Below, piece after piece: positions 3,544 to 31,977 of a stretch of 33,048 nucleotides of DNA. The DNA lies in the IMG/VR virus record IMGVR_UViG_3300008255_000086, positions 1 through 33,048 of that record; one strand, written 5' to 3'. The translations under genes were made by a program, and so were the position numbers. A model generated the notes under the pieces. The model was not told the origin of the DNA and made no database searches. It worked only from the letters and a program-made list of their open reading frames with translations. Within the stretch, counting starts at the first letter, position 1. Each line of letters begins with the position of its first letter. The stretch comes from a virus (lineage: Duplodnaviria; Caudoviricetes).

Positions 3544-4197
3544 ATGTCAGAATTTAGAGGAGCATTATATGCAAACGGAACAGCATCAGCACAAATCAAG
3601 GCAACAGAAGGTCGTGTGTTTGGGGTTGTTGTAAACTCACACTCATCAGGAACTATTCGTTTCAATGATGGAACAGGTGGAACTACATCAGCGGGAGTTA
3701 AAGCAACTGGAGTACTAACATCATCAGATGTCTTTACAGATGGAGAAACAGTAACTATTGAAGATACAGTGTATACAATGGTGGACACCCTGTCAGGAGC
3801 GGCATACGAAGTTCTGATTGGAGCAAGTGCAGCGGCATCACTAGATAACCTTAAATCAGCAATTAACGCATCAGCGGGAGCAGGAACAACTTATGGAACA
3901 GGAACAGTGGCACACCCAAATGTAACAGCAACAACTAATACAGATACAGCTCAAACAGTTGAAGCATATCGAGTTGGAACATACGGAAATGCAATTACTA
4001 CTACAACAGATGCAGTAGATGTTGCATGGGGAGCAGAAACTCTGGAATCTGGAGCAGAAGCAAATTACCTTGTAACAAATACTTATACTTTCTCAGCAGG
4101 TTCACAAGTATTATACTTTGCAGAACCCATCTCATTTAGACAAGGTATTTATCTGACAGTAGGCGGAACAATTGATTACACAGTGTTGTACAATTAA
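3544..4197 (+). CDS. Putative virion structural protein (Thr/Ala/Gly-rich, beta-rich)
   Basis: Composition and position between terL and portal. Confidence 0.6.
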   Translation: MSEFRGALYANGTASAQIKATEGRVFGVVVNSHSSGTIRFNDGTGGTTSAGVKATGVLTSSDVFTDGETVTIEDTVYTMVDTLSGAAYEVLIGASAAASLDNLKSAINASAGAGTTYGTGTVAHPNVTATTNTDTAQTVEAYRVGTYGNAITTTTDAVDVAWGAETLESGAEANYLVTNTYTFSAGSQVLYFAEPISFRQGIYLTVGGTIDYTVLYN

Positions 4198-6046: not shown

Positions 6047-6562
6047 ATGAATAAAAACAAGATGAGGTTCTCAGAAGCAGAAATCTCTTTGATACAAGCA
6101 ACTTTCAAAGATGACGATGCACTGATTGAACTACGAAAGCACTTCTTACAAGTTAAAGACTCAAAGAAGTTTACTACAAAGGCGGTTAAGGCTCTTATTG
6201 CTAAGACCTTTTTGCCACAAATCGACCCAGAAGCACCACTTAATCAAATAGTGGACTTCAACCTAATTACAGCAGTACGAGATAAAGAGATTGACTCTGC
6301 GTACCAAGCAGTATTAGTACAAAAGATTGTTATTGATTACTTCCAAGACAGATTAGATGCACTTGAAGGAAAATCAACAAACAAGATTCTATTTAAAGAC
6401 TTGGACACAATCACAGAAGACAAAGAAAAAACAGTTATGAACTTTATCGCTCGACAATCAATTGTTTCACTTATTGAGTCAGGACTATCTCAGTTAAATG
6501 TCCTTGCTAATCAATCAATGGAAGATTTGCTAAAAGCTTTGGAGAAGAACAGTTCAAAATAA
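6047..6562 (+). CDS. Hypothetical protein in head module
   Basis: ORF track; between portal and scaffold. Confidence 0.75.
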   Translation: MNKNKMRFSEAEISLIQATFKDDDALIELRKHFLQVKDSKKFTTKAVKALIAKTFLPQIDPEAPLNQIVDFNLITAVRDKEIDSAYQAVLVQKIVIDYFQDRLDALEGKSTNKILFKDLDTITEDKEKTVMNFIARQSIVSLIESGLSQLNVLANQSMEDLLKALEKNSSK

Positions 6563-7224: not shown

Positions 7225-8079
7225 ATGGCAAATACCATCGCATCACGAGTTTATCGTGACAAATATCGAAGGGCAACACTAGATACATTACTAAGACGAG
7301 CTCTTATTGCAGAAAAAGTTTGTGCAGTAGATAGTTCAGATGTAAAACGAATTCAATCACCTTACAGTTCAACTCCAACAGCAGTAGTTCAAGCAATCGC
7401 AGGTACATATACACCAGCAGAGTACACTACAACTGATGACACATTGACTGTAACAGATGAATTCATCGTTTCAGAACACATCTATGACTTTGAAGAAGTA
7501 CTAACACAATTCGACATTTTCGCAGCACGAACAGAACAACAAATGTTTGAAGTGGCTAACAAAATCGACAAATTCGTTCTTAACAACCTTTGTGAAGATG
7601 CAACAGGTGCTTACACTACTCCAGCAGGAGGGTTCTCAGCAGCAAACATCAACACAATCATGTCTAATCTTGCAGCTAAAGTAGCAGGATTTGCAGACGC
7701 TTACAACGGACTTTTCCTTGTAATCGAAAACACAGAAGTAGCAGGATTTGTTCAAGCACAAGCAACAAACGGATTCTCATTCTCAGATATGGCTCTTAAA
7801 AACGGATTCATGAACTCATACATGGGTATCGACATCCATGTAACACGAGCAGGAACTTTCGCAGATGAAACTCTTGGAACAACAACTTACACAAACGCTG
7901 GACACCGAGTATTCGGAGTTAAGAATGTGACAACATACGCTTCACCACGAGGAGTACGATTCGAAGAAAAATCAGTTTCAGGTAAAACTGGACTTGAAGT
8001 AGTTACTTGGGGATACATTGGATTCAAACTATGGGCTCCAAAAACAGACCTCATTGTTGACATCACAGTATCAGCATAG
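7225..8079 (+). CDS. Major capsid protein (HK97 fold, P22 coat-like)
   Basis: 284 aa; VANKID helix, GFMNSYMGIDIHVT and YIGFKLW motifs; strongly biased codon usage; follows scaffold. Confidence 0.85.
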   Translation: MANTIASRVYRDKYRRATLDTLLRRALIAEKVCAVDSSDVKRIQSPYSSTPTAVVQAIAGTYTPAEYTTTDDTLTVTDEFIVSEHIYDFEEVLTQFDIFAARTEQQMFEVANKIDKFVLNNLCEDATGAYTTPAGGFSAANINTIMSNLAAKVAGFADAYNGLFLVIENTEVAGFVQAQATNGFSFSDMALKNGFMNSYMGIDIHVTRAGTFADETLGTTTYTNAGHRVFGVKNVTTYASPRGVRFEEKSVSGKTGLEVVTWGYIGFKLWAPKTDLIVDITVSA

Positions 8080-8156
8080 TTATACACCCCTTTTGTGGGG
8101 GTAGTGGTCACAGTTTACCCACTGATTCTGTGACTACTACTCCCCCCGAAGGACTA
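8077..8156 (+). ncRNA. Structured 3' element after capsid gene with anti-leader loop
   Basis: Stem 8101-8113/8128-8140 (13 bp, one G-U) extended by GGGG/UCCC and CCUUU/GAAGG; closed by UAGU (stop codon)/ACUA; 14-nt loop UUUACCCACUGAUU. Confidence 0.75.
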
Positions 8157-8169
8157 ATATAAAATAATT

Positions 8170-8322
8170 ATGGCAACAAAGAAAGCAACAAAGAAAGTAG
8201 AAGAAAAAGTGGAAAAAGTAGTAAATTCAAAACTAGCAGAACTCATTGAAAAATATAAAGTTCAAAACCCTGCAAAGTATGAATTGAAGAAAGCAGAATT
8301 AGAAGCTAAACTCAATAAATAA
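8170..8322 (+). CDS. Small Lys/Glu-rich protein, 50 aa
   Basis: Hand-translated MATKKATKKVEEKVEKVVNSKLAELIEKYKVQNPAKYELKKAELEAKLNK. Confidence 0.75.
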   Translation: MATKKATKKVEEKVEKVVNSKLAELIEKYKVQNPAKYELKKAELEAKLNK

Positions 8323-8324
8323 TT

Positions 8325-8582
8325 ATGGCAGTACCTAATGGATTAGACCCACAATTTGGTGGAGTAGCAGGTTCGGGAACTGACATTGCTACAACAGCAG
8401 GAGGAGCAAAAGTACAAAATATCGGACTTGGTGGAATTGGTCTGTATATTGGTTCAGGAGCACCAACTGTTTCAGCAATTAAAGGTTCTCTATATATCCG
8501 AACAGATGGTTCATCATCATCAACTCGACTATATGTGAACAACGGAACAACAACTTGGGTTGCTGTAACAACAGCATCTTAG
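8325..8582 (+). CDS. Small virion protein (decoration/fibre-like)
   Basis: GSGAPTVSAIKGSLYIRTDG...RLYVN...W motif common in phage structural/fibre proteins. Confidence 0.65.
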   Translation: MAVPNGLDPQFGGVAGSGTDIATTAGGAKVQNIGLGGIGLYIGSGAPTVSAIKGSLYIRTDGSSSSTRLYVNNGTTTWVAVTTAS

Positions 8583-12998: not shown

Positions 12999-15074
12999 AT
13001 GTTCAAAATACCCACAGAAAACAAACAAGTAACTCAAACAAACGAATCCGATAAAGACGGTATTATTTACCGCACAAAGAACATTGACCTTAGTGAAAAG
13101 GGCTATATTAAGCTTTCAGATAGAACAAGAATACTGGCAGACAGTACAACACTAACGGATTTATCTGCATCAGCTCTTCCTGTTATGGCTTTTGGAGCTG
13201 CTAACTCAACACTGTACGCTATTTCAAATAAAAATATTTATAAATCAGGAGTAGTTCAATATTCGAATACGGTTATAAATTGGACAAAAGATGCAGAGGT
13301 AGATGTTCCCACATTAAATGCCAGCGATAATGATATTCTTTCGGTTCGTATGAGAGTGGGTAGTAGTACAACAAACTGGGTTATAGTGGCTAATTCGTCA
13401 GGGAATCTTTATGCAGGAAGCAATTTTAATGATTGGGAAACAATGACCCTTGTGTCAGGGAATGCTTATACTATTGCTGTTTTCGAAAATTTAAATTCGT
13501 TAGCGTACGCAGATGATGATACCGTGAGTCTAATAAGTCTTTCAACAGGCTCAATGACACCAACTATTACCCTTCAACTACCAGTTGGGCGTTATCAGAT
13601 AACCTCAATGGATTGGGCAAACAATAGACTATACATAGGGACTTATTCCAGAGATACTGGGAAAGCACTATTGTTTGAATGGGATGGGCTTACAACACAA
13701 GCCAATACTGCATATAATGTTGGAGCTGGTTCAGTGTATTCTGTGACCAAGTATCAATCGGGAGTTGCTTGTGTTACTTCAATGGGTGAAATCTTCTATT
13801 GTAGTAGTGGATTAAGCAAGCTTGCCTCATTCCCCAACTTCTTTGAAAAGAAAGAACTTTCATTAAGTAGGGGTATCAATGCACCTATTTTAAGGCGAGG
13901 AGTGATAGCTGACGGAGATGACCTATATATATCAGTAAACTCACACAGGAGCAGAAGTGAAGAGGTGGACGGGCAAAGGCAACCATACAACTTTCCTTCT
14001 GGAGTATGGGTATATAATCCAAAAACGGGGCTAAATCTAAAGCACACTATTGGTCAATCCAGTGAGCCCGTAACCAATGCAATCACAACAGGAAATGTAA
14101 ACACAGGAACTGGAGTTATAACTGTCGCAGGAGCAACCGTACCAACAACAGGCACACCTTGTTTTTATTACTCAGGTGCAACTTCTCAAGGGATAGGAGG
14201 ACTCAAATCATCAAATAGATATTTTGTAATCAATGTGAGTGGCACAACCTTAAAACTTGCATCAACTTACGCAAACGCTATTGCAGGGACAGCAATTACA
14301 TTAACAAGTACTGGATTGGATACACAGTTTATAACTTTTAACTCTAACGCAGACTTTGGAGGAATAAATAATAAATATGGAGGTCTTGCACTTATTAGAG
14401 AAATAAACCCTCTTTTCACGACTTCAAGTGGAACAATTAGTAACCTGCTTATAGGTGGATGTGTTCAAGGTGCAACTTCAACAACATCTAATGTTACATC
14501 CATCCATGCAACCCAAAAGTTTCAGGAGAACAGAGGTGTATTTGAAACTCCAAAGCTAGAATCGCAGGAAATAAAAGATATGTTTACCAGTGTAGTAACA
14601 AAGTGGAAGAAAACCTTAAAACCAGAAGACAAAATTATTATTAAATACCGAACAGAAGACAATACACTTCGAGATAGTTACATAGTTTCAAACCCAACAA
14701 TCACTTGGGTGGATTCGACTTCTTATACAACAACGGAGGACATATCTGGGGTGGTAATTGGAAATGAGGTAGAAATTATTAGTGGTGCAGGTGCTGGTTA
14801 TCTTGCTCATATCACCAACATTGAAGAAAGTGGTGGGACATATACGGTGACTATCGATGAGGTAATTGAGAATATTTCAGCTAATGATAAAGCAGCGGTC
14901 ATTTACACTAACTACAACAAATTAACAGCAATAACTGCAATGGAAGACATCGTAAACTCTGCTTCTATTGGTGCTACTGGTTCGTGGATTCAAATAAAGA
15001 TAGAGCTGAGGGGAATCAATTTCAAGCAAGAAGAATTAATTATCGGTAACAACGAACACACACCAGTGTTATAA
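12999..15074 (+). CDS. Tail nozzle / DNA stabilisation protein (P22 gp10-like beta-propeller, putative)
   Basis: 691 aa with propeller-like repeats, C-terminal SWIQIKIELRG; precedes the ejection proteins. Confidence 0.6.
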   Translation: MFKIPTENKQVTQTNESDKDGIIYRTKNIDLSEKGYIKLSDRTRILADSTTLTDLSASALPVMAFGAANSTLYAISNKNIYKSGVVQYSNTVINWTKDAEVDVPTLNASDNDILSVRMRVGSSTTNWVIVANSSGNLYAGSNFNDWETMTLVSGNAYTIAVFENLNSLAYADDDTVSLISLSTGSMTPTITLQLPVGRYQITSMDWANNRLYIGTYSRDTGKALLFEWDGLTTQANTAYNVGAGSVYSVTKYQSGVACVTSMGEIFYCSSGLSKLASFPNFFEKKELSLSRGINAPILRRGVIADGDDLYISVNSHRSRSEEVDGQRQPYNFPSGVWVYNPKTGLNLKHTIGQSSEPVTNAITTGNVNTGTGVITVAGATVPTTGTPCFYYSGATSQGIGGLKSSNRYFVINVSGTTLKLASTYANAIAGTAITLTSTGLDTQFITFNSNADFGGINNKYGGLALIREINPLFTTSSGTISNLLIGGCVQGATSTTSNVTSIHATQKFQENRGVFETPKLESQEIKDMFTSVVTKWKKTLKPEDKIIIKYRTEDNTLRDSYIVSNPTITWVDSTSYTTTEDISGVVIGNEVEIISGAGAGYLAHITNIEESGGTYTVTIDEVIENISANDKAAVIYTNYNKLTAITAMEDIVNSASIGATGSWIQIKIELRGINFKQEELIIGNNEHTPVL

Positions 15075-27663: not shown

Positions 27664-27888
27664 TTAGTACAAAGTTAGTCCATTAGTGATAATGAACATC
27701 ACTCCTTGATAGATATAATACCCAACTGCTAGTGTCATGATTGTATATCCTATCTTTTCATACCAAGTTGTTTTAGTTGTTTCACTAAATCCAAAGAAGT
27801 CATCACTATCTACTAGACGAAAGTCTGCTGAGTAATCTCTTTTGTTTAATCTTGTTTTCTTTGTTGCGAAGTCTTTATAGTTTTCCAT
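27664..27888 (-). CDS. Small protein with C-terminal TM helix
   Basis: IGYTIMTLAVGYYIYQGVMFII. Confidence 0.7.
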   Translation of the reverse strand: MENYKDFATKKTRLNKRDYSADFRLVDSDDFFGFSETTKTTWYEKIGYTIMTLAVGYYIYQGVMFIITNGLTLY

Positions 27889-27895
27889 GTTTGTT

Positions 27896-27919
27896 TTGTT
27901 ATTTGTTAATCCTGTCTAC
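27896..27919 (-). repeat. 24-nt leader GTAGACAGGATTAACAAATAACAA, copy 1
   Basis: Identical to 31712-31735 (+). Confidence 0.9.
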
Positions 27920-27925
27920 CTCTAT

Positions 27926-28013
27926 ATAATACACTATCAGTATTTATTGTAAAGTGAGTGAGTGTGGATAACTGTGCATAACTTTTACACAAGAACAAGC
28001 CAGATGATATAAT
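27926..28013. promoter_or_regulatory. Divergent early promoters flanking two tandem DnaA boxes
   Basis: Leftward TTTACA-16-TATTAT (27953-27926); TGTGGATAA 27963-27971 and TGTGCATAA 27973-27981; rightward TGATATAAT 28005-28013. Confidence 0.7.
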
Positions 28014-28018
28014 TAAGA

Positions 28019-28169
28019 GGTAAATAACGAATTGGACAAGAAGTTATTTATTTGATAAGTTGCATTATTCAGAGTCTTGAAAAGAAAGCGGGGAGGGTGA
28101 AAACCCAACGGTTCGCAACTACCGTAAGTCCAACCCTTCTTTCTTTTTAGGACTTTAATTTATTAAAGT
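28019..28169 (+). ncRNA. Structured 5' leader of replication initiator
   Basis: Hairpin 28021-28050; 16-bp stem 28073-28088/28139-28154 enclosing GGGU-GAAA-ACCC and ACGGU/ACCGU hairpins. Confidence 0.7.
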
Positions 28170-28913
28170 ATGGCAAATAACAAACAGCGATACATAAACA
28201 CTCGCTTGTGGAACGATACTTATGTATCAATGCTCGACCCAATAGAGAAACTATTATTCGTCTATCTACTGACGAATGAGCATACAAACATATCAGGAAT
28301 CTATGAGATGCCATTAAAAATAATGGCTGTGGAAACAGGTCTTGATGAATCAATGTTGAAGAAAGTTTTTGGCAGATTAAAGTCAAAAGTGAATTATGTT
28401 GATGGCAGGGTTATAATAAAGAACTTTATCAAACACCAAGAAACAGGAAGTCCGAATGTTCGGAAGGGGATTTTGAATTGTTTAGAAGAATTAAACAAAG
28501 ACTTCTTAAAAGATGTTGTAAACAAAGGAATTTATGTACTCCCTATATACTATATAGATACCCTATGTATACCCTATGTAGAGGGTCGGAACTATTTAGA
28601 TTTAGATTTAGATTCTAATTTAGATTTAGATTCTACGGAACTGCCTCAAAAATCTTCTAAAAAGAAAATAGAAAAGGAACTCTTTGGAGAACTTGAAAAT
28701 GTAAAACTAACAAACGAAGAGTATCAGAAGTTGATTGATAAGTTTGGAGATAAAAATACAAACATACTTATTTTTGAGTTAGATACCTACATAGGTTCAA
28801 AAGGAGATAAATATAAATCTCACTACGCAACCCTGTTGAACTGGGCTAAAAGAAAATGGGAACAACAGGAGGAGAAGAAAATTATCAAAAATAATAACAT
28901 AGCATTTACCTAA
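28170..28913 (+). CDS. Phage replication initiator / replisome organiser (DnaD-like)
   Basis: RYINTRLWND...KLLFVYLLTN...SGIYE N-terminal wHTH; repetitive linker; C-terminal NVKLTNEEYQKL...KYKSHYATLLNW. Confidence 0.8.
   Translation: MANNKQRYINTRLWNDTYVSMLDPIEKLLFVYLLTNEHTNISGIYEMPLKIMAVETGLDESMLKKVFGRLKSKVNYVDGRVIIKNFIKHQETGSPNVRKGILNCLEELNKDFLKDVVNKGIYVLPIYYIDTLCIPYVEGRNYLDLDLDSNLDLDSTELPQKSSKKKIEKELFGELENVKLTNEEYQKLIDKFGDKNTNILIFELDTYIGSKGDKYKSHYATLLNWAKRKWEQQEEKKIIKNNNIAFT
28541..28636 (+). repeat. Iteron-like repeats inside initiator gene (candidate origin)
   Basis: ATACCCTATGT x2 at 28558-28579, related CCCTATAT at 28541; TTTAGA x5 at 28595-28630. Confidence 0.6.
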
Positions 28914-29294: not shown

Positions 29295-29336
29295 TGTGGA
29301 TAAACCTTTTGACTATCTCATACACTTTGATATACT
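29295..29336 (+). promoter_or_regulatory. DnaA box + TTGACT-16-TATACT (extended -10)
   Basis: TGTGGATAA 29295-29303, TTGACT 29309-29314, TGaTATACT 29328-29336. Confidence 0.7.
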
Positions 29337-29364
29337 AACTATGTTATTGGATTAACAATAAAAA

Positions 29365-29554
29365 ATGCAATTAAAAGGAACAAAACTTAATGTATACAGG
29401 TACTTGAAAGAAGAACCTCGTAGTCGAGAAAGGAAGAATAAATCTCGTGCATTGGAGAAAAGTACTTGCTGATTACCCAGCATTACGAGGAAGTGACTAC
29501 TTCAAAGGCAAGAAGAAATCACGAGAGAAGGTATTACAAGACTTAAAAGAATAA
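29365..29554 (+). pseudogene. Frameshifted small basic protein
   Basis: Frame 1 stops at 29472; from 29453 another frame reads WRKVLADYPALRGSDYFKGKKKSREKVLQDLKE*, ending 2 nt before the erf start. Confidence 0.6.
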
Positions 29555-30099: not shown

Positions 30100-30682
30100 A
30101 CAAAGAACTCCTGAATGGTTTGACTTGCGAAAAGAATATCCTTTAACAGCAAGTAATGCACAAGCCATAGGAAACAATGGAAAAGGTCTTGAAACATTGT
30201 GTTGGGATAAACTAGCCGAGATACACTCGAAGACACCAAAAGAACAATACACAAACGAACATTTAGAAAGAGGTATTGAGTTAGAAAACGAAGCACGAAC
30301 CATTTACGCAATGGAAACAGGTAACAAAGTTGAAGAAGTTGGGTTTGTGACTAATGAAGAAATATCAAAAGTTGCAGGTGCAAGCCCAGATGGAATAGTA
30401 AATGAAGATGGGCTTGTAGAAATTAAGTGCTTCGCAGACACCAAACACTTTAAAATGATTGTAAATGGACTTGAAATAGAGTCACAGTATATGTGGCAAA
30501 TGCAAATGCAATTACTTATTACGGGTAGAAAATGGGTAGATTTTGTCGCCTACAACCCAAACTACGACAAATCAATCCTGATTCAAAGGGTTGAGACCGA
30601 TGAAGTTGTGCAAGAGAAGATAAAAACAGGATTGAAGATTGGGGAGAAATTATTAGAAGAAATTAAACAAAAAATAAAATGA
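30080..30682 (+). CDS. YqaJ / lambda exonuclease family
   Basis: QRTPEWF..R, TAS, RGIELE, ASPDG, EIKC, QMQMQL. Confidence 0.92.
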   Translation: MKLHKVKQRTPEWFDLRKEYPLTASNAQAIGNNGKGLETLCWDKLAEIHSKTPKEQYTNEHLERGIELENEARTIYAMETGNKVEEVGFVTNEEISKVAGASPDGIVNEDGLVEIKCFADTKHFKMIVNGLEIESQYMWQMQMQLLITGRKWVDFVAYNPNYDKSILIQRVETDEVVQEKIKTGLKIGEKLLEEIKQKIK

Positions 30683-31089
30683 ATTTAAACAAAACACTTA
30701 TTGCTGGAAACTTAACCCGTGACCCAGAAAAGAAAGCACTGCCAACAGGAAGTAATGTTACAAACTTTTCAGTAGCAGTAAACAGAGTATGGTATAAGGA
30801 CGAACAAAAACAAGAGGCGACCGAATACATAAACATTGTCGCTTTTGGAAAACAAGCCGACACAATCGCACAATACTTTAAAAAAGGTTCTTCTATTTTT
30901 GTTGAGGGAAGGATACAAACACGAAGCTGGGAAGACAAAGAGGGAAACAAGAAATACGCAACAGAAGTTATTATGGAGAACTTTCAGTTTGTAAATTCAA
31001 CGAAGCAAGAAAAACAACCCTTAGAAAAATCAACAGAAGAAATTGAATATCCAGAAGATGATATTTCTCCTGAAGATGTACCATTTTAG
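30679..31089 (+). CDS. ssb: Single-stranded DNA-binding protein
   Basis: LNK..IAGNLTRDPE, VEGRIQTRSWEDKEG, acidic DVPF tail. Confidence 0.96.
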   Translation: MNLNKTLIAGNLTRDPEKKALPTGSNVTNFSVAVNRVWYKDEQKQEATEYINIVAFGKQADTIAQYFKKGSSIFVEGRIQTRSWEDKEGNKKYATEVIMENFQFVNSTKQEKQPLEKSTEEIEYPEDDISPEDVPF

Positions 31090-31192
31090 CGATTAGGCAA
31101 ACATAATTGTTTGCCTACCCTCCGAGAACTTCAAGGACTATTTGTTAATCCCGCTCTGTCTTTATTTCTTAGGGGGTAGATAAACCGTTATG
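31087..31192 (+). ncRNA. Structured 3' element after ssb with anti-leader loop
   Basis: Hairpin 31094-31117 (10 bp); stem 31115-31128/31166-31179; inner stem 31133-31138/31158-31163; 19-nt loop UAUUUGUUAAUCCCGCUCU; UAGCG (stop)/CGUUA (next start) closes the element. Confidence 0.75.
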
Positions 31193-31639
31193 AACAAAAA
31201 ACAAAAATTATTTAAGCATTTAGACGAACATAGATATGCAACCGACAGTGATGTTGCTCGTATTTGGGGTGGAGAACCTAACTGGTCGACAGTAGAAGAA
31301 TATAAACGACAATGGCAAAGACTTGCAAACGACAAGGAGTATTTTGCAGACAAGGAAATATTAGGAATAGAAAAGTGGGGAAGAAAACACCTTGCAGAAT
31401 TGAAAGGTGGACATAGGTATATCAGCAAACTTTTCTATGAAGAACAGAAACCTAGATTCAAAAAAGACTTTTCAAAGCACAGATTTTTCTATAAAGGAAA
31501 TGAACTTTACAATATCAAAGAAGCGGAGTGGTCATTTAGCGGATTTGATTTAAAGGCAAACTGGAAGAATAAGGACGAAGATAATCGAGAATGTTTGGGC
31601 TATTTTTACTTAAAAGACCTAGAAATTTTTGATAAATAA
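31190..31639 (+). CDS. Hypothetical protein
   Basis: ORF track. Confidence 0.7.
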   Translation: MNKKQKLFKHLDEHRYATDSDVARIWGGEPNWSTVEEYKRQWQRLANDKEYFADKEILGIEKWGRKHLAELKGGHRYISKLFYEEQKPRFKKDFSKHRFFYKGNELYNIKEAEWSFSGFDLKANWKNKDEDNRECLGYFYLKDLEIFDK

Positions 31640-31653
31640 GGCTTAAAACTACA

Positions 31654-31705
31654 TGTGGATAACTCAAGTTAAAACACTTGCACCTTTAATACACTATGTT
31701 ACACT
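31654..31705 (+). promoter_or_regulatory. DnaA box + TTGCAC-16-TACACT (extended -10)
   Basis: TGTGGATAA 31654-31662, TTGCAC 31678-31683, TGtTACACT 31697-31705. Confidence 0.65.
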
Positions 31706-31711
31706 ATAAAT

Positions 31712-31735
31712 GTAGACAGGATTAACAAATAACAA
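31712..31735 (+). repeat. 24-nt leader GTAGACAGGATTAACAAATAACAA, copy 2
   Basis: Identical to 27896-27919 (-); begins about 7 nt after the -10 in both copies. Confidence 0.9.
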
Positions 31736-31743
31736 TAAACAAT

Positions 31744-31977
31744 ATGAGTACAGCAAAAAATATTATAGAAGGATTAGAAAACACTATCGGAGTACCAAAC
31801 GCATTTGGTTCAAAAGATATGGATTACGAAGAAGTAAAAGAAACACCACCAGCACTACGACCAACAGGAGTACAGTTTGAACAAGAAGATGTAGAACGAG
31901 AAGACGGCCCAGACTTTGACCGAGATATAGTAGCAGAAGACTTAGCAGATTGGGAAGATGACTCTAACGATATGTAA
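31744..31977 (+). CDS. Small highly acidic protein
   Basis: D/E-rich C-terminal half; first gene after an early promoter. Confidence 0.75.
   Translation: MSTAKNIIEGLENTIGVPNAFGSKDMDYEEVKETPPALRPTGVQFEQEDVEREDGPDFDRDIVAEDLADWEDDSNDM

Follow-up and report, generated by a model that had tools for sequence, protein, structure and literature searches.

Why should the short gap between the single-stranded DNA-binding protein gene (ssb) of a phage and the gene that follows it be predicted to fold into a stable RNA, with a loop that is the exact antisense of leaders elsewhere in the same genome? The question is posed by the virus record IMGVR_UViG_3300008255_000086 (Caudoviricetes), a phage record of 33,048 bases with terminal repeats that was analyzed over its whole length (hereafter, the window), and specifically by the 106 nucleotides (nt) at 31087-31192. 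An initial annotation, made from the letters alone, had seen in this element an antisense regulator derived from the 3' untranslated region (UTR) of ssb or else a device for translational re-initiation. The explanation that we favor, with a probability of roughly 0.55, is a delayed antisense brake on the early operons: the apex of the element would be released by RNase III and would act in trans, without Hfq. The broader proposition that the element functions through RNA-RNA pairing of some kind, be it as such a brake, in cis or as a toehold, we consider highly probable.

A predicted two-state fold and its match to predicted early leaders

The anatomy of the element is as follows:

31087..31192, +, structured intra-operon RNA element from the ssb stop codon to the next AUG (predicted fold)
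31094..31117, +, hairpin A, 10 base pairs (bp), beginning 4 nt past the stop; mutually exclusive with lower stem B; probability 0.56-0.66
31102..31191, +, long, bulged stem B of about 30 bp below a 19-nt loop (31139-31157); putative RNase III substrate
31139..31151, +, 13-nt antisense seed with exact matches, 93% unpaired in all flank contexts tried and so exposed in the loop
31157..31161, +, second pairing segment, 5 bp past a 5-nt bulge, complementary to two leaders

The 106 nt fold at -31.6 kcal/mol (z = -3.71), a stability that none of 200 shuffled sequences equals. The 3' arm of hairpin A doubles as the 5' arm of stem B, and the states with hairpin A and with lower stem B are nearly equal in energy (-31.2 and -31.6, respectively); when 15 nt at the ssb stop are blocked, as a mimic of a ribosome, hairpin A is lost and lower stem B becomes fixed (0.98). 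When the element is folded as DNA, only hairpin A is stable, and a reading as a hairpin of single-stranded DNA was rejected because stem B is unstable in that form. No plus-strand promoter-like site is listed between 29336 and 31286 (consensus scan only) and no terminator-like site at the element. The element does lie 3' of ssb, but an origin in the ssb 3' UTR proves too narrow a description: the operon continues into the next gene, and the copy in one related phage (L158, below) follows a gene other than ssb. Rfam yields no match to the element in the window at E up to 5 and, over four related loci, just two sub-threshold eukaryotic matches, located elsewhere than the elements.

The loop would pair with the leaders of three predicted early operons, listed here with their promoters:

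31678..31705, +, predicted promoter: -35 at 31678, 16-nt spacer, -10 at 31700 (read by eye, under the scan threshold)
31712..31735, +, target leader 1, predicted +1 to +24, unstructured; duplex over -30 to -13 of the AUG at 31744
27926..27953, -, predicted leftward promoter, 10/12 consensus matches
27896..27919, -, target leader 2, 24 nt identical to leader 1; duplex over -29 to -12 of the AUG at 27888
29309..29336, +, promoter predicted for the operon that contains the element, 10/12 matches, with TG
29343..29364, +, own-operon leader, a weak target: 10 nt at 29349-29358, half inside a 6-bp hairpin

The seed is the reverse complement of a 13-mer that occurs exactly at 31719-31731 (+) and 27900-27912 (-), and the first 10 nt of this 13-mer recur at 29349-29358; the 13-, 13- and 10-nt complementarity of the initial annotation is thus borne out by exact copies, at distances of 0.6, 1.8 and 3.2 kb from the element. 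Its proposal of action in trans for at least one target also holds, the minus-strand leader being reachable in no other way. The annotation had extended the duplex through the TCT at the 3' end of the loop; a better extension is offered by 31157-31161, which pairs with +3 to +7 of the leaders over the 5-nt bulge, invading the top helix, for a total of 18 bp and -19.1 kcal/mol. When three mismatches are allowed, there is no excess of sites (24 found against 23.5 expected), and therefore the signal resides in the exact copies. Among 20000 shuffled apices, none was complementary over 13 nt to even one of the three leaders, and three were complementary over 10 nt to all of them. The seed 13-mer is among the nine 13-mers that have at least three copies in the genome, the other eight representing a late-promoter-like motif, a rep repeat and one A-rich word, and 2 of 1197 foreign leaders match the window apex equally by exact complement. 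The duplex with the own-operon leader (10 bp, -12.1) is equaled by 295 of the 1197 foreign leaders, hence its rating as a weak target.

All three targets lie downstream of sigma-70-like promoters with a G 6 nt past the -10 hexamer; the 24 nt common to leaders 1 and 2 begin at that G, the promoter cores differ, and transcription presumably starts at the target leaders. A separate 7-nt motif, in either orientation, occupies the spacers of all three target promoters (27929-27935, 29320-29326 and 31689-31695). Because it is found in the three promoters yet not in the element, this motif, likely a protein operator, and the RNA-side motif are separate signals. Further copies of the spacer motif are located at 8536 and 15411 of contig L297. 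Ahead of the early promoters, at window positions 27963, 29295 and 31654, stands a 9-mer that we take to be DnaA-box-like and that is present in 29 of the 40 related records searched.

Counterparts in related phages

Do related phages keep this arrangement? The right end of the window carries rep (28170), a gene for a 125-amino-acid (aa) protein, erf, yqaJ and ssb, and relatives were gathered via the 125-aa family and SSB, for a total of 114 genomes or loci (2.57 Mb). Three of them, G005, L158 and G023, have the same A/B fold, hairpin A after a stop codon overlapping a stem B before the next AUG, and in all four phages stem B ends 0-17 nt from that AUG. In G005, the fold follows an unrelated gene with an SSB-like acidic tail, and its apex has a 13-nt complement to the leader of its own operon, the best non-self duplex in 38.7 kb. 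The L158 element likewise matches its own-operon leader over 13 nt, and the G023 element, which follows a 95-aa acidic-tailed gene, forms a 25-bp duplex with the rep leader and matches a second leader over 10 nt. No foreign leader matches these apices equally by exact complement (0/1202 for G005, 0/1209 for L158 and 0/1213 for G023), and in a cross-matrix the strongest partner of each of the four apices is a leader from the same phage, a fifth locus, L186, being the exception.

The letters of loop and leader differ from phage to phage, and within G005, L158 and G023 the cognate match is kept; the loops of relatives are matched to their leaders, not unrelated to them. It is because these three phages keep both the fold and a matching loop-leader pair that an RNA brake on early genes appears likely, and to this extent the antisense regulator of the initial annotation has held up. 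Position and fold suggest common descent of the four elements; convergence is possible. Feedback pairing with the own operon is weak in the window phage and stronger in G005 and L158. The seed of L158 is also found in L219, in two divergent leaders, one of them leftward and upstream of rep as in the window; the L219 contig stops before any element.

A search for long stems among 523 intergenic gaps, made without regard to targets, retained 18, two of which, in the window and in L158, have 13-nt leader matches; G005, G023 and L186 joined the long-stem set by hand. Of 4868 gene ends submitted to a target-blind screen for the A/B fold, six passed, three with a 13-nt complement to an own leader, two without a leader match (one after the window capsid gene) and one a doubtful 9-nt case; G023 was missed by this screen. 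The element is real and recurrent in a minority of related phages, where it may represent a new form of loop-antisense phage riboregulation. It is patchy and not tied to ssb, because among 32 ssb-bearing genomes gathered afterwards no further element was clear, the sole candidate being a doubtful 9-nt match (G061). A general ssb 3' element was rejected as well: the new ssb loci contain 64 PF-ending genes, of which 17 had z < -1.8; these 17, judged by eye, all lacked the fold. Just 3' of ssb, L024, L029 and L030 share a different structured element, part of which (15 nt in L029 and 11 nt in L030) is antisense to the ssb coding region itself, and L320, L328 and L333 share a hairpin followed by a promoter-like motif and then by rep-like genes.

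Several further candidates were set apart. L186 is a possible variant that lacks hairpin A, gives a non-significant leader test (33/1211) and binds a foreign leader slightly better; here (L186:1020-1150), a long stem after an acidic-tailed gene has a 31-nt loop with an 18-bp match that spans a start codon farther downstream, and with looser pairing to a second start. A similar long stem, G043 (L520:11720-11894, -), is a 48-bp intergenic stem with an open apex, set aside because no leader target was found for it. The G020 matches are same-orientation leader hairpins of late promoters; the sites (L261 at about 14260-14340 and at 6303-6370, L262 at about 3615-3690) combine late-type promoters with related hairpin leaders. 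Loose promoter-first scans were too noisy, one of them missing the positive control, and were discarded.

Close relatives of the window itself were not found: the ssb and erf searches yielded distant phages only, GenBank phages gave erf-like matches only, a search with a 17-nt leader pattern returned three matches, all unrelated, and a second leader pattern, run over viral contigs, hit 120 loci, mostly AT-rich, with no convincing element among the 46 matches listed.

A proposed antisense brake and its competitors

In what kind of cell would such an element operate? Relatives of the 125-aa gene occur in five assembled genomes, four of them Saccharibacteria, and the window SSB shares 55% identity with that of one member of the Saccharibacteria and 41-44% with the SSBs of four other Patescibacteria; because of these affinities, an ultra-small bacterium of the candidate phyla radiation (CPR) is the likely host. 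A sample of 101 Patescibacteria genomes, themselves incomplete, includes RNase III in 98, Hfq in none and Rho above the cut-off in 19. Shine-Dalgarno (SD) motifs precede 1 of the 42 window genes, and the leaders are A-rich.

In such a host, RNase III would cut the long irregular duplex of stem B, the released apex would pair in trans with the leaders at 31712 and 27919, and the translation or stability of the targets would drop. Hairpin A might stay behind on the upstream mRNA and protect its 3' end, and a short, A-rich 5' end would be left to the next gene. The 18-bp duplex would lie at about -30 to -12 relative to the start codons, a stretch at which ribosomes are expected to load on SD-less, A-rich leaders, and pairing so near the 5' end of SD-less messages could hinder ribosome loading or expose the message to decay. 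The same A/B fold recurs 3' of the major capsid gene (window 8077-8172, +), there with a short apex that matches no leader, which fits a general processing signal that was later co-opted; long stems are also found 3' of capsid-like genes in L305 and L307. Speculatively, the brake could be part of a translation-gated RNA timer in CPR phages, in which the ribosome finishing ssb would force A into B, RNase III would excise an Hfq-free small RNA (sRNA) that shuts the early regulon, and each phage lineage would rewrite the leader code; if this were true, the rewritten code could also set immunity between related phages.

Quite a few observations weigh against the brake. Ranked by binding energy, the L158 pair is only 74th of 1209, and for the window apex 18 of 1197 foreign leaders equal its own targets. 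The freed apex is predicted to bind the two strong leaders at -13.6 kcal/mol, compared with a modest -6.8 for the intact element (-0.8 to -6.0 in the relatives), loop-loop contacts lying outside the model. The four elements do not align by sequence, such that their homology rests on architecture, without column-wise covariation. G005 and L158 have the own-operon leader as their sole clear target, which pairing in cis explains equally well, and the G023 apex resembles a palindromic DNA motif of two promoter spacers. The fold rules were set after the four elements had been viewed, and G005 and G023 originally came to light through match-seeking, so that the screens cannot count as independent tests. 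Of the 18 target-blind long hairpins, 16 match leaders over 9 nt at most, and the 32 later ssb-bearing genomes, the one prospective set, did not add a clear case. Finally, the CPR host is no more than a likely one, and the marker 125-aa gene is present in just 1 of 401 sampled Patescibacteria genomes.

Could the same pairing work without any processing? In that case the element, as part of a long operon mRNA, would pair in cis with leaders on the same transcript, either the own leader upstream or the 31712 leader on a read-through RNA, and tune translation, any effect in trans being secondary. No terminator-like site is listed between the element and 31712, so this target may share its RNA, and the own-operon targets of G005 and L158 point the same way; however, it is the 27919 leader, on the other strand, that has the full 18-bp match, compared with just 10 nt for the own leader, and the seed in L219 likewise recurs in a leftward leader. 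We regard this version as unlikely. Alternatively, the roles might be reversed and the element might receive the signal, in the manner of a toehold switch: a leader RNA that bound the loop would unzip stem B, whereupon hairpin A could form and the start of the following gene would become free. In the window, cofolding with the 31712 leader indeed opens stem B completely and forms hairpin A, A and lower B are nearly equal in energy there, and stem B stands just ahead of the next AUG in the four phages; in G005, G023 and L158, however, the lowest-energy cofold leaves stem B shut, the downstream genes are unrelated, and the capsid-gene fold lacks the antisense loop, all of which leaves a switch of this kind quite doubtful.

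Pairing would be beside the point if the shared motif were a protein-binding site, that is, a DNA operator at +1 or a site for an RNA-binding protein, with the copy after ssb serving as a fourth site or decoy and lying in the loop incidentally. The motif does occur at three co-regulated promoters, the G023 apex contains 7+7 nt of the palindromic spacer motif, and both this apex and the rep leader resemble that motif with an insert. Yet in all four phages the additional copy occupies the apex of stem B and runs antisense to the transcript. Moreover, a 5-nt bulge displaces the second segment, the G023 duplex includes G.U pairs, and in the window the operator-like position is already filled by a different motif; such a site is improbable. 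Slightly more so is the suggestion that stem B is an mRNA processing and stabilizing signal only and that the leader matches are chance matches selected by the search. In these phages, long hairpins often lack a target (16 of 18), and discovery was partly target-aware, but one genome contains three matched leaders and 13-nt cognate matches accompany half of the target-blind A/B passes. As for re-initiation, where a closing helix would set the ssb stop beside the following AUG, the helix is present in the isolated 106-mer (probability 0.72) and fades with 40 or 80 nt of flank (0.28 and 0.13); it has no counterpart in the three relatives (0.02 or less). With the ribosome mimic at the stop, the predicted accessibility of the next start drops from 0.48 to 0.17, so that a ribosome there would close this start, the opposite of an aid to re-initiation; this proposal of the initial annotation is unsupported and hardly credible.

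Known systems and genome setting

How would such a brake compare with known RNA regulators? Intergenic RNase III stems cut the polycistronic RNA of the T7 early genes, and we know of no antisense RNA released from them. The P4 CI RNA is processed from an early transcript, acts back on that transcript and works via Rho-dependent termination, unlike what can be expected in a likely host that mostly lacks Rho. Processed 3'UTR-derived sRNAs end at an mRNA terminator; the window element resembles them in lying 3' of a coding gene without a promoter of its own (consensus scan only), but it has no terminator-like site, and the next gene begins at its foot. Unlike cis-encoded antisense RNAs of the OOP and sar type, its targets are not on the opposite strand of the same locus.

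The closest parallel may be the c4 antisense RNA of P1/P7, in which loop-borne complementary sequences pair with a phage message near the ribosome-binding region and specificity is set by sequence differences among related phages (PMC12197685). To that extent the two are alike, given the complementarity exposed in a loop and the phage-specific pairs. The window element, however, is a single long stem that follows a coding gene 1.7-2.4 kb into an operon, and it would target up to three operons, including one on the other strand, at their 5' ends. It does not belong to C4: there is no match to the Rfam C4 covariance model and, unlike for c4, no antirepressor family among the window proteins scanned that could be the target. 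RsaC is released by RNase III from an operon transcript (PMC8383071) and prophage DicF is a processed, operon-derived sRNA (PMC12197685). Such RNAs arise inside operon transcripts, are set free by RNase III and repress by base pairing, often as negative feedback, all of which is proposed for the window element too; unlike RsaC and DicF, it is intergenic, has no terminator, would be aimed at the early leaders of the phage itself and occurs in a phage whose likely host phylum yielded no Hfq.

Almost nothing is known of gene timing in phages of CPR bacteria, and we found no report of antisense RNA in such phages in the literature within our scope, which left out most subscription papers. In a likely host that has no Hfq and for the most part no Rho, a seed-leader pair that varies from phage to phage would provide a compact and testable model of RNA control for SD-less messages, and four natural orthogonal seed-leader pairs are at hand for testing.

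The genes that flank the element are the following:

30679..31089, +, ssb, OB-fold with acidic tail (PF00436, E 7e-37), last of the erf-yqaJ-ssb recombination genes, with ERF and YqaJ upstream
31190..31639, +, 149-aa ORFan, its start at the foot of stem B; among 5.8 billion proteins, searched at near lengths, it matches only itself

Family searches assigned no Pfam, PHROG or Atlas family to the ORFan and no family to the first genes of the target operons. Elsewhere in the window, a repeated extended -10 motif upstream of the structural-gene blocks (3498, 6566, 12495 and 18775) likely marks late promoters. The recombination operon is headed by a 35-aa open reading frame (29365-29553, +), beyond the stop of which a second frame is open, which suggests a frameshifted small gene. 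Inside rep, a hexamer repeat (28594-28632) is either iteron-like or encodes a low-complexity linker, and the rep leader (28042-28170, +) has a strong fold, -47.8 kcal/mol, that extends to the start codon; structured rep-type leaders are present in L291 and L148 too.
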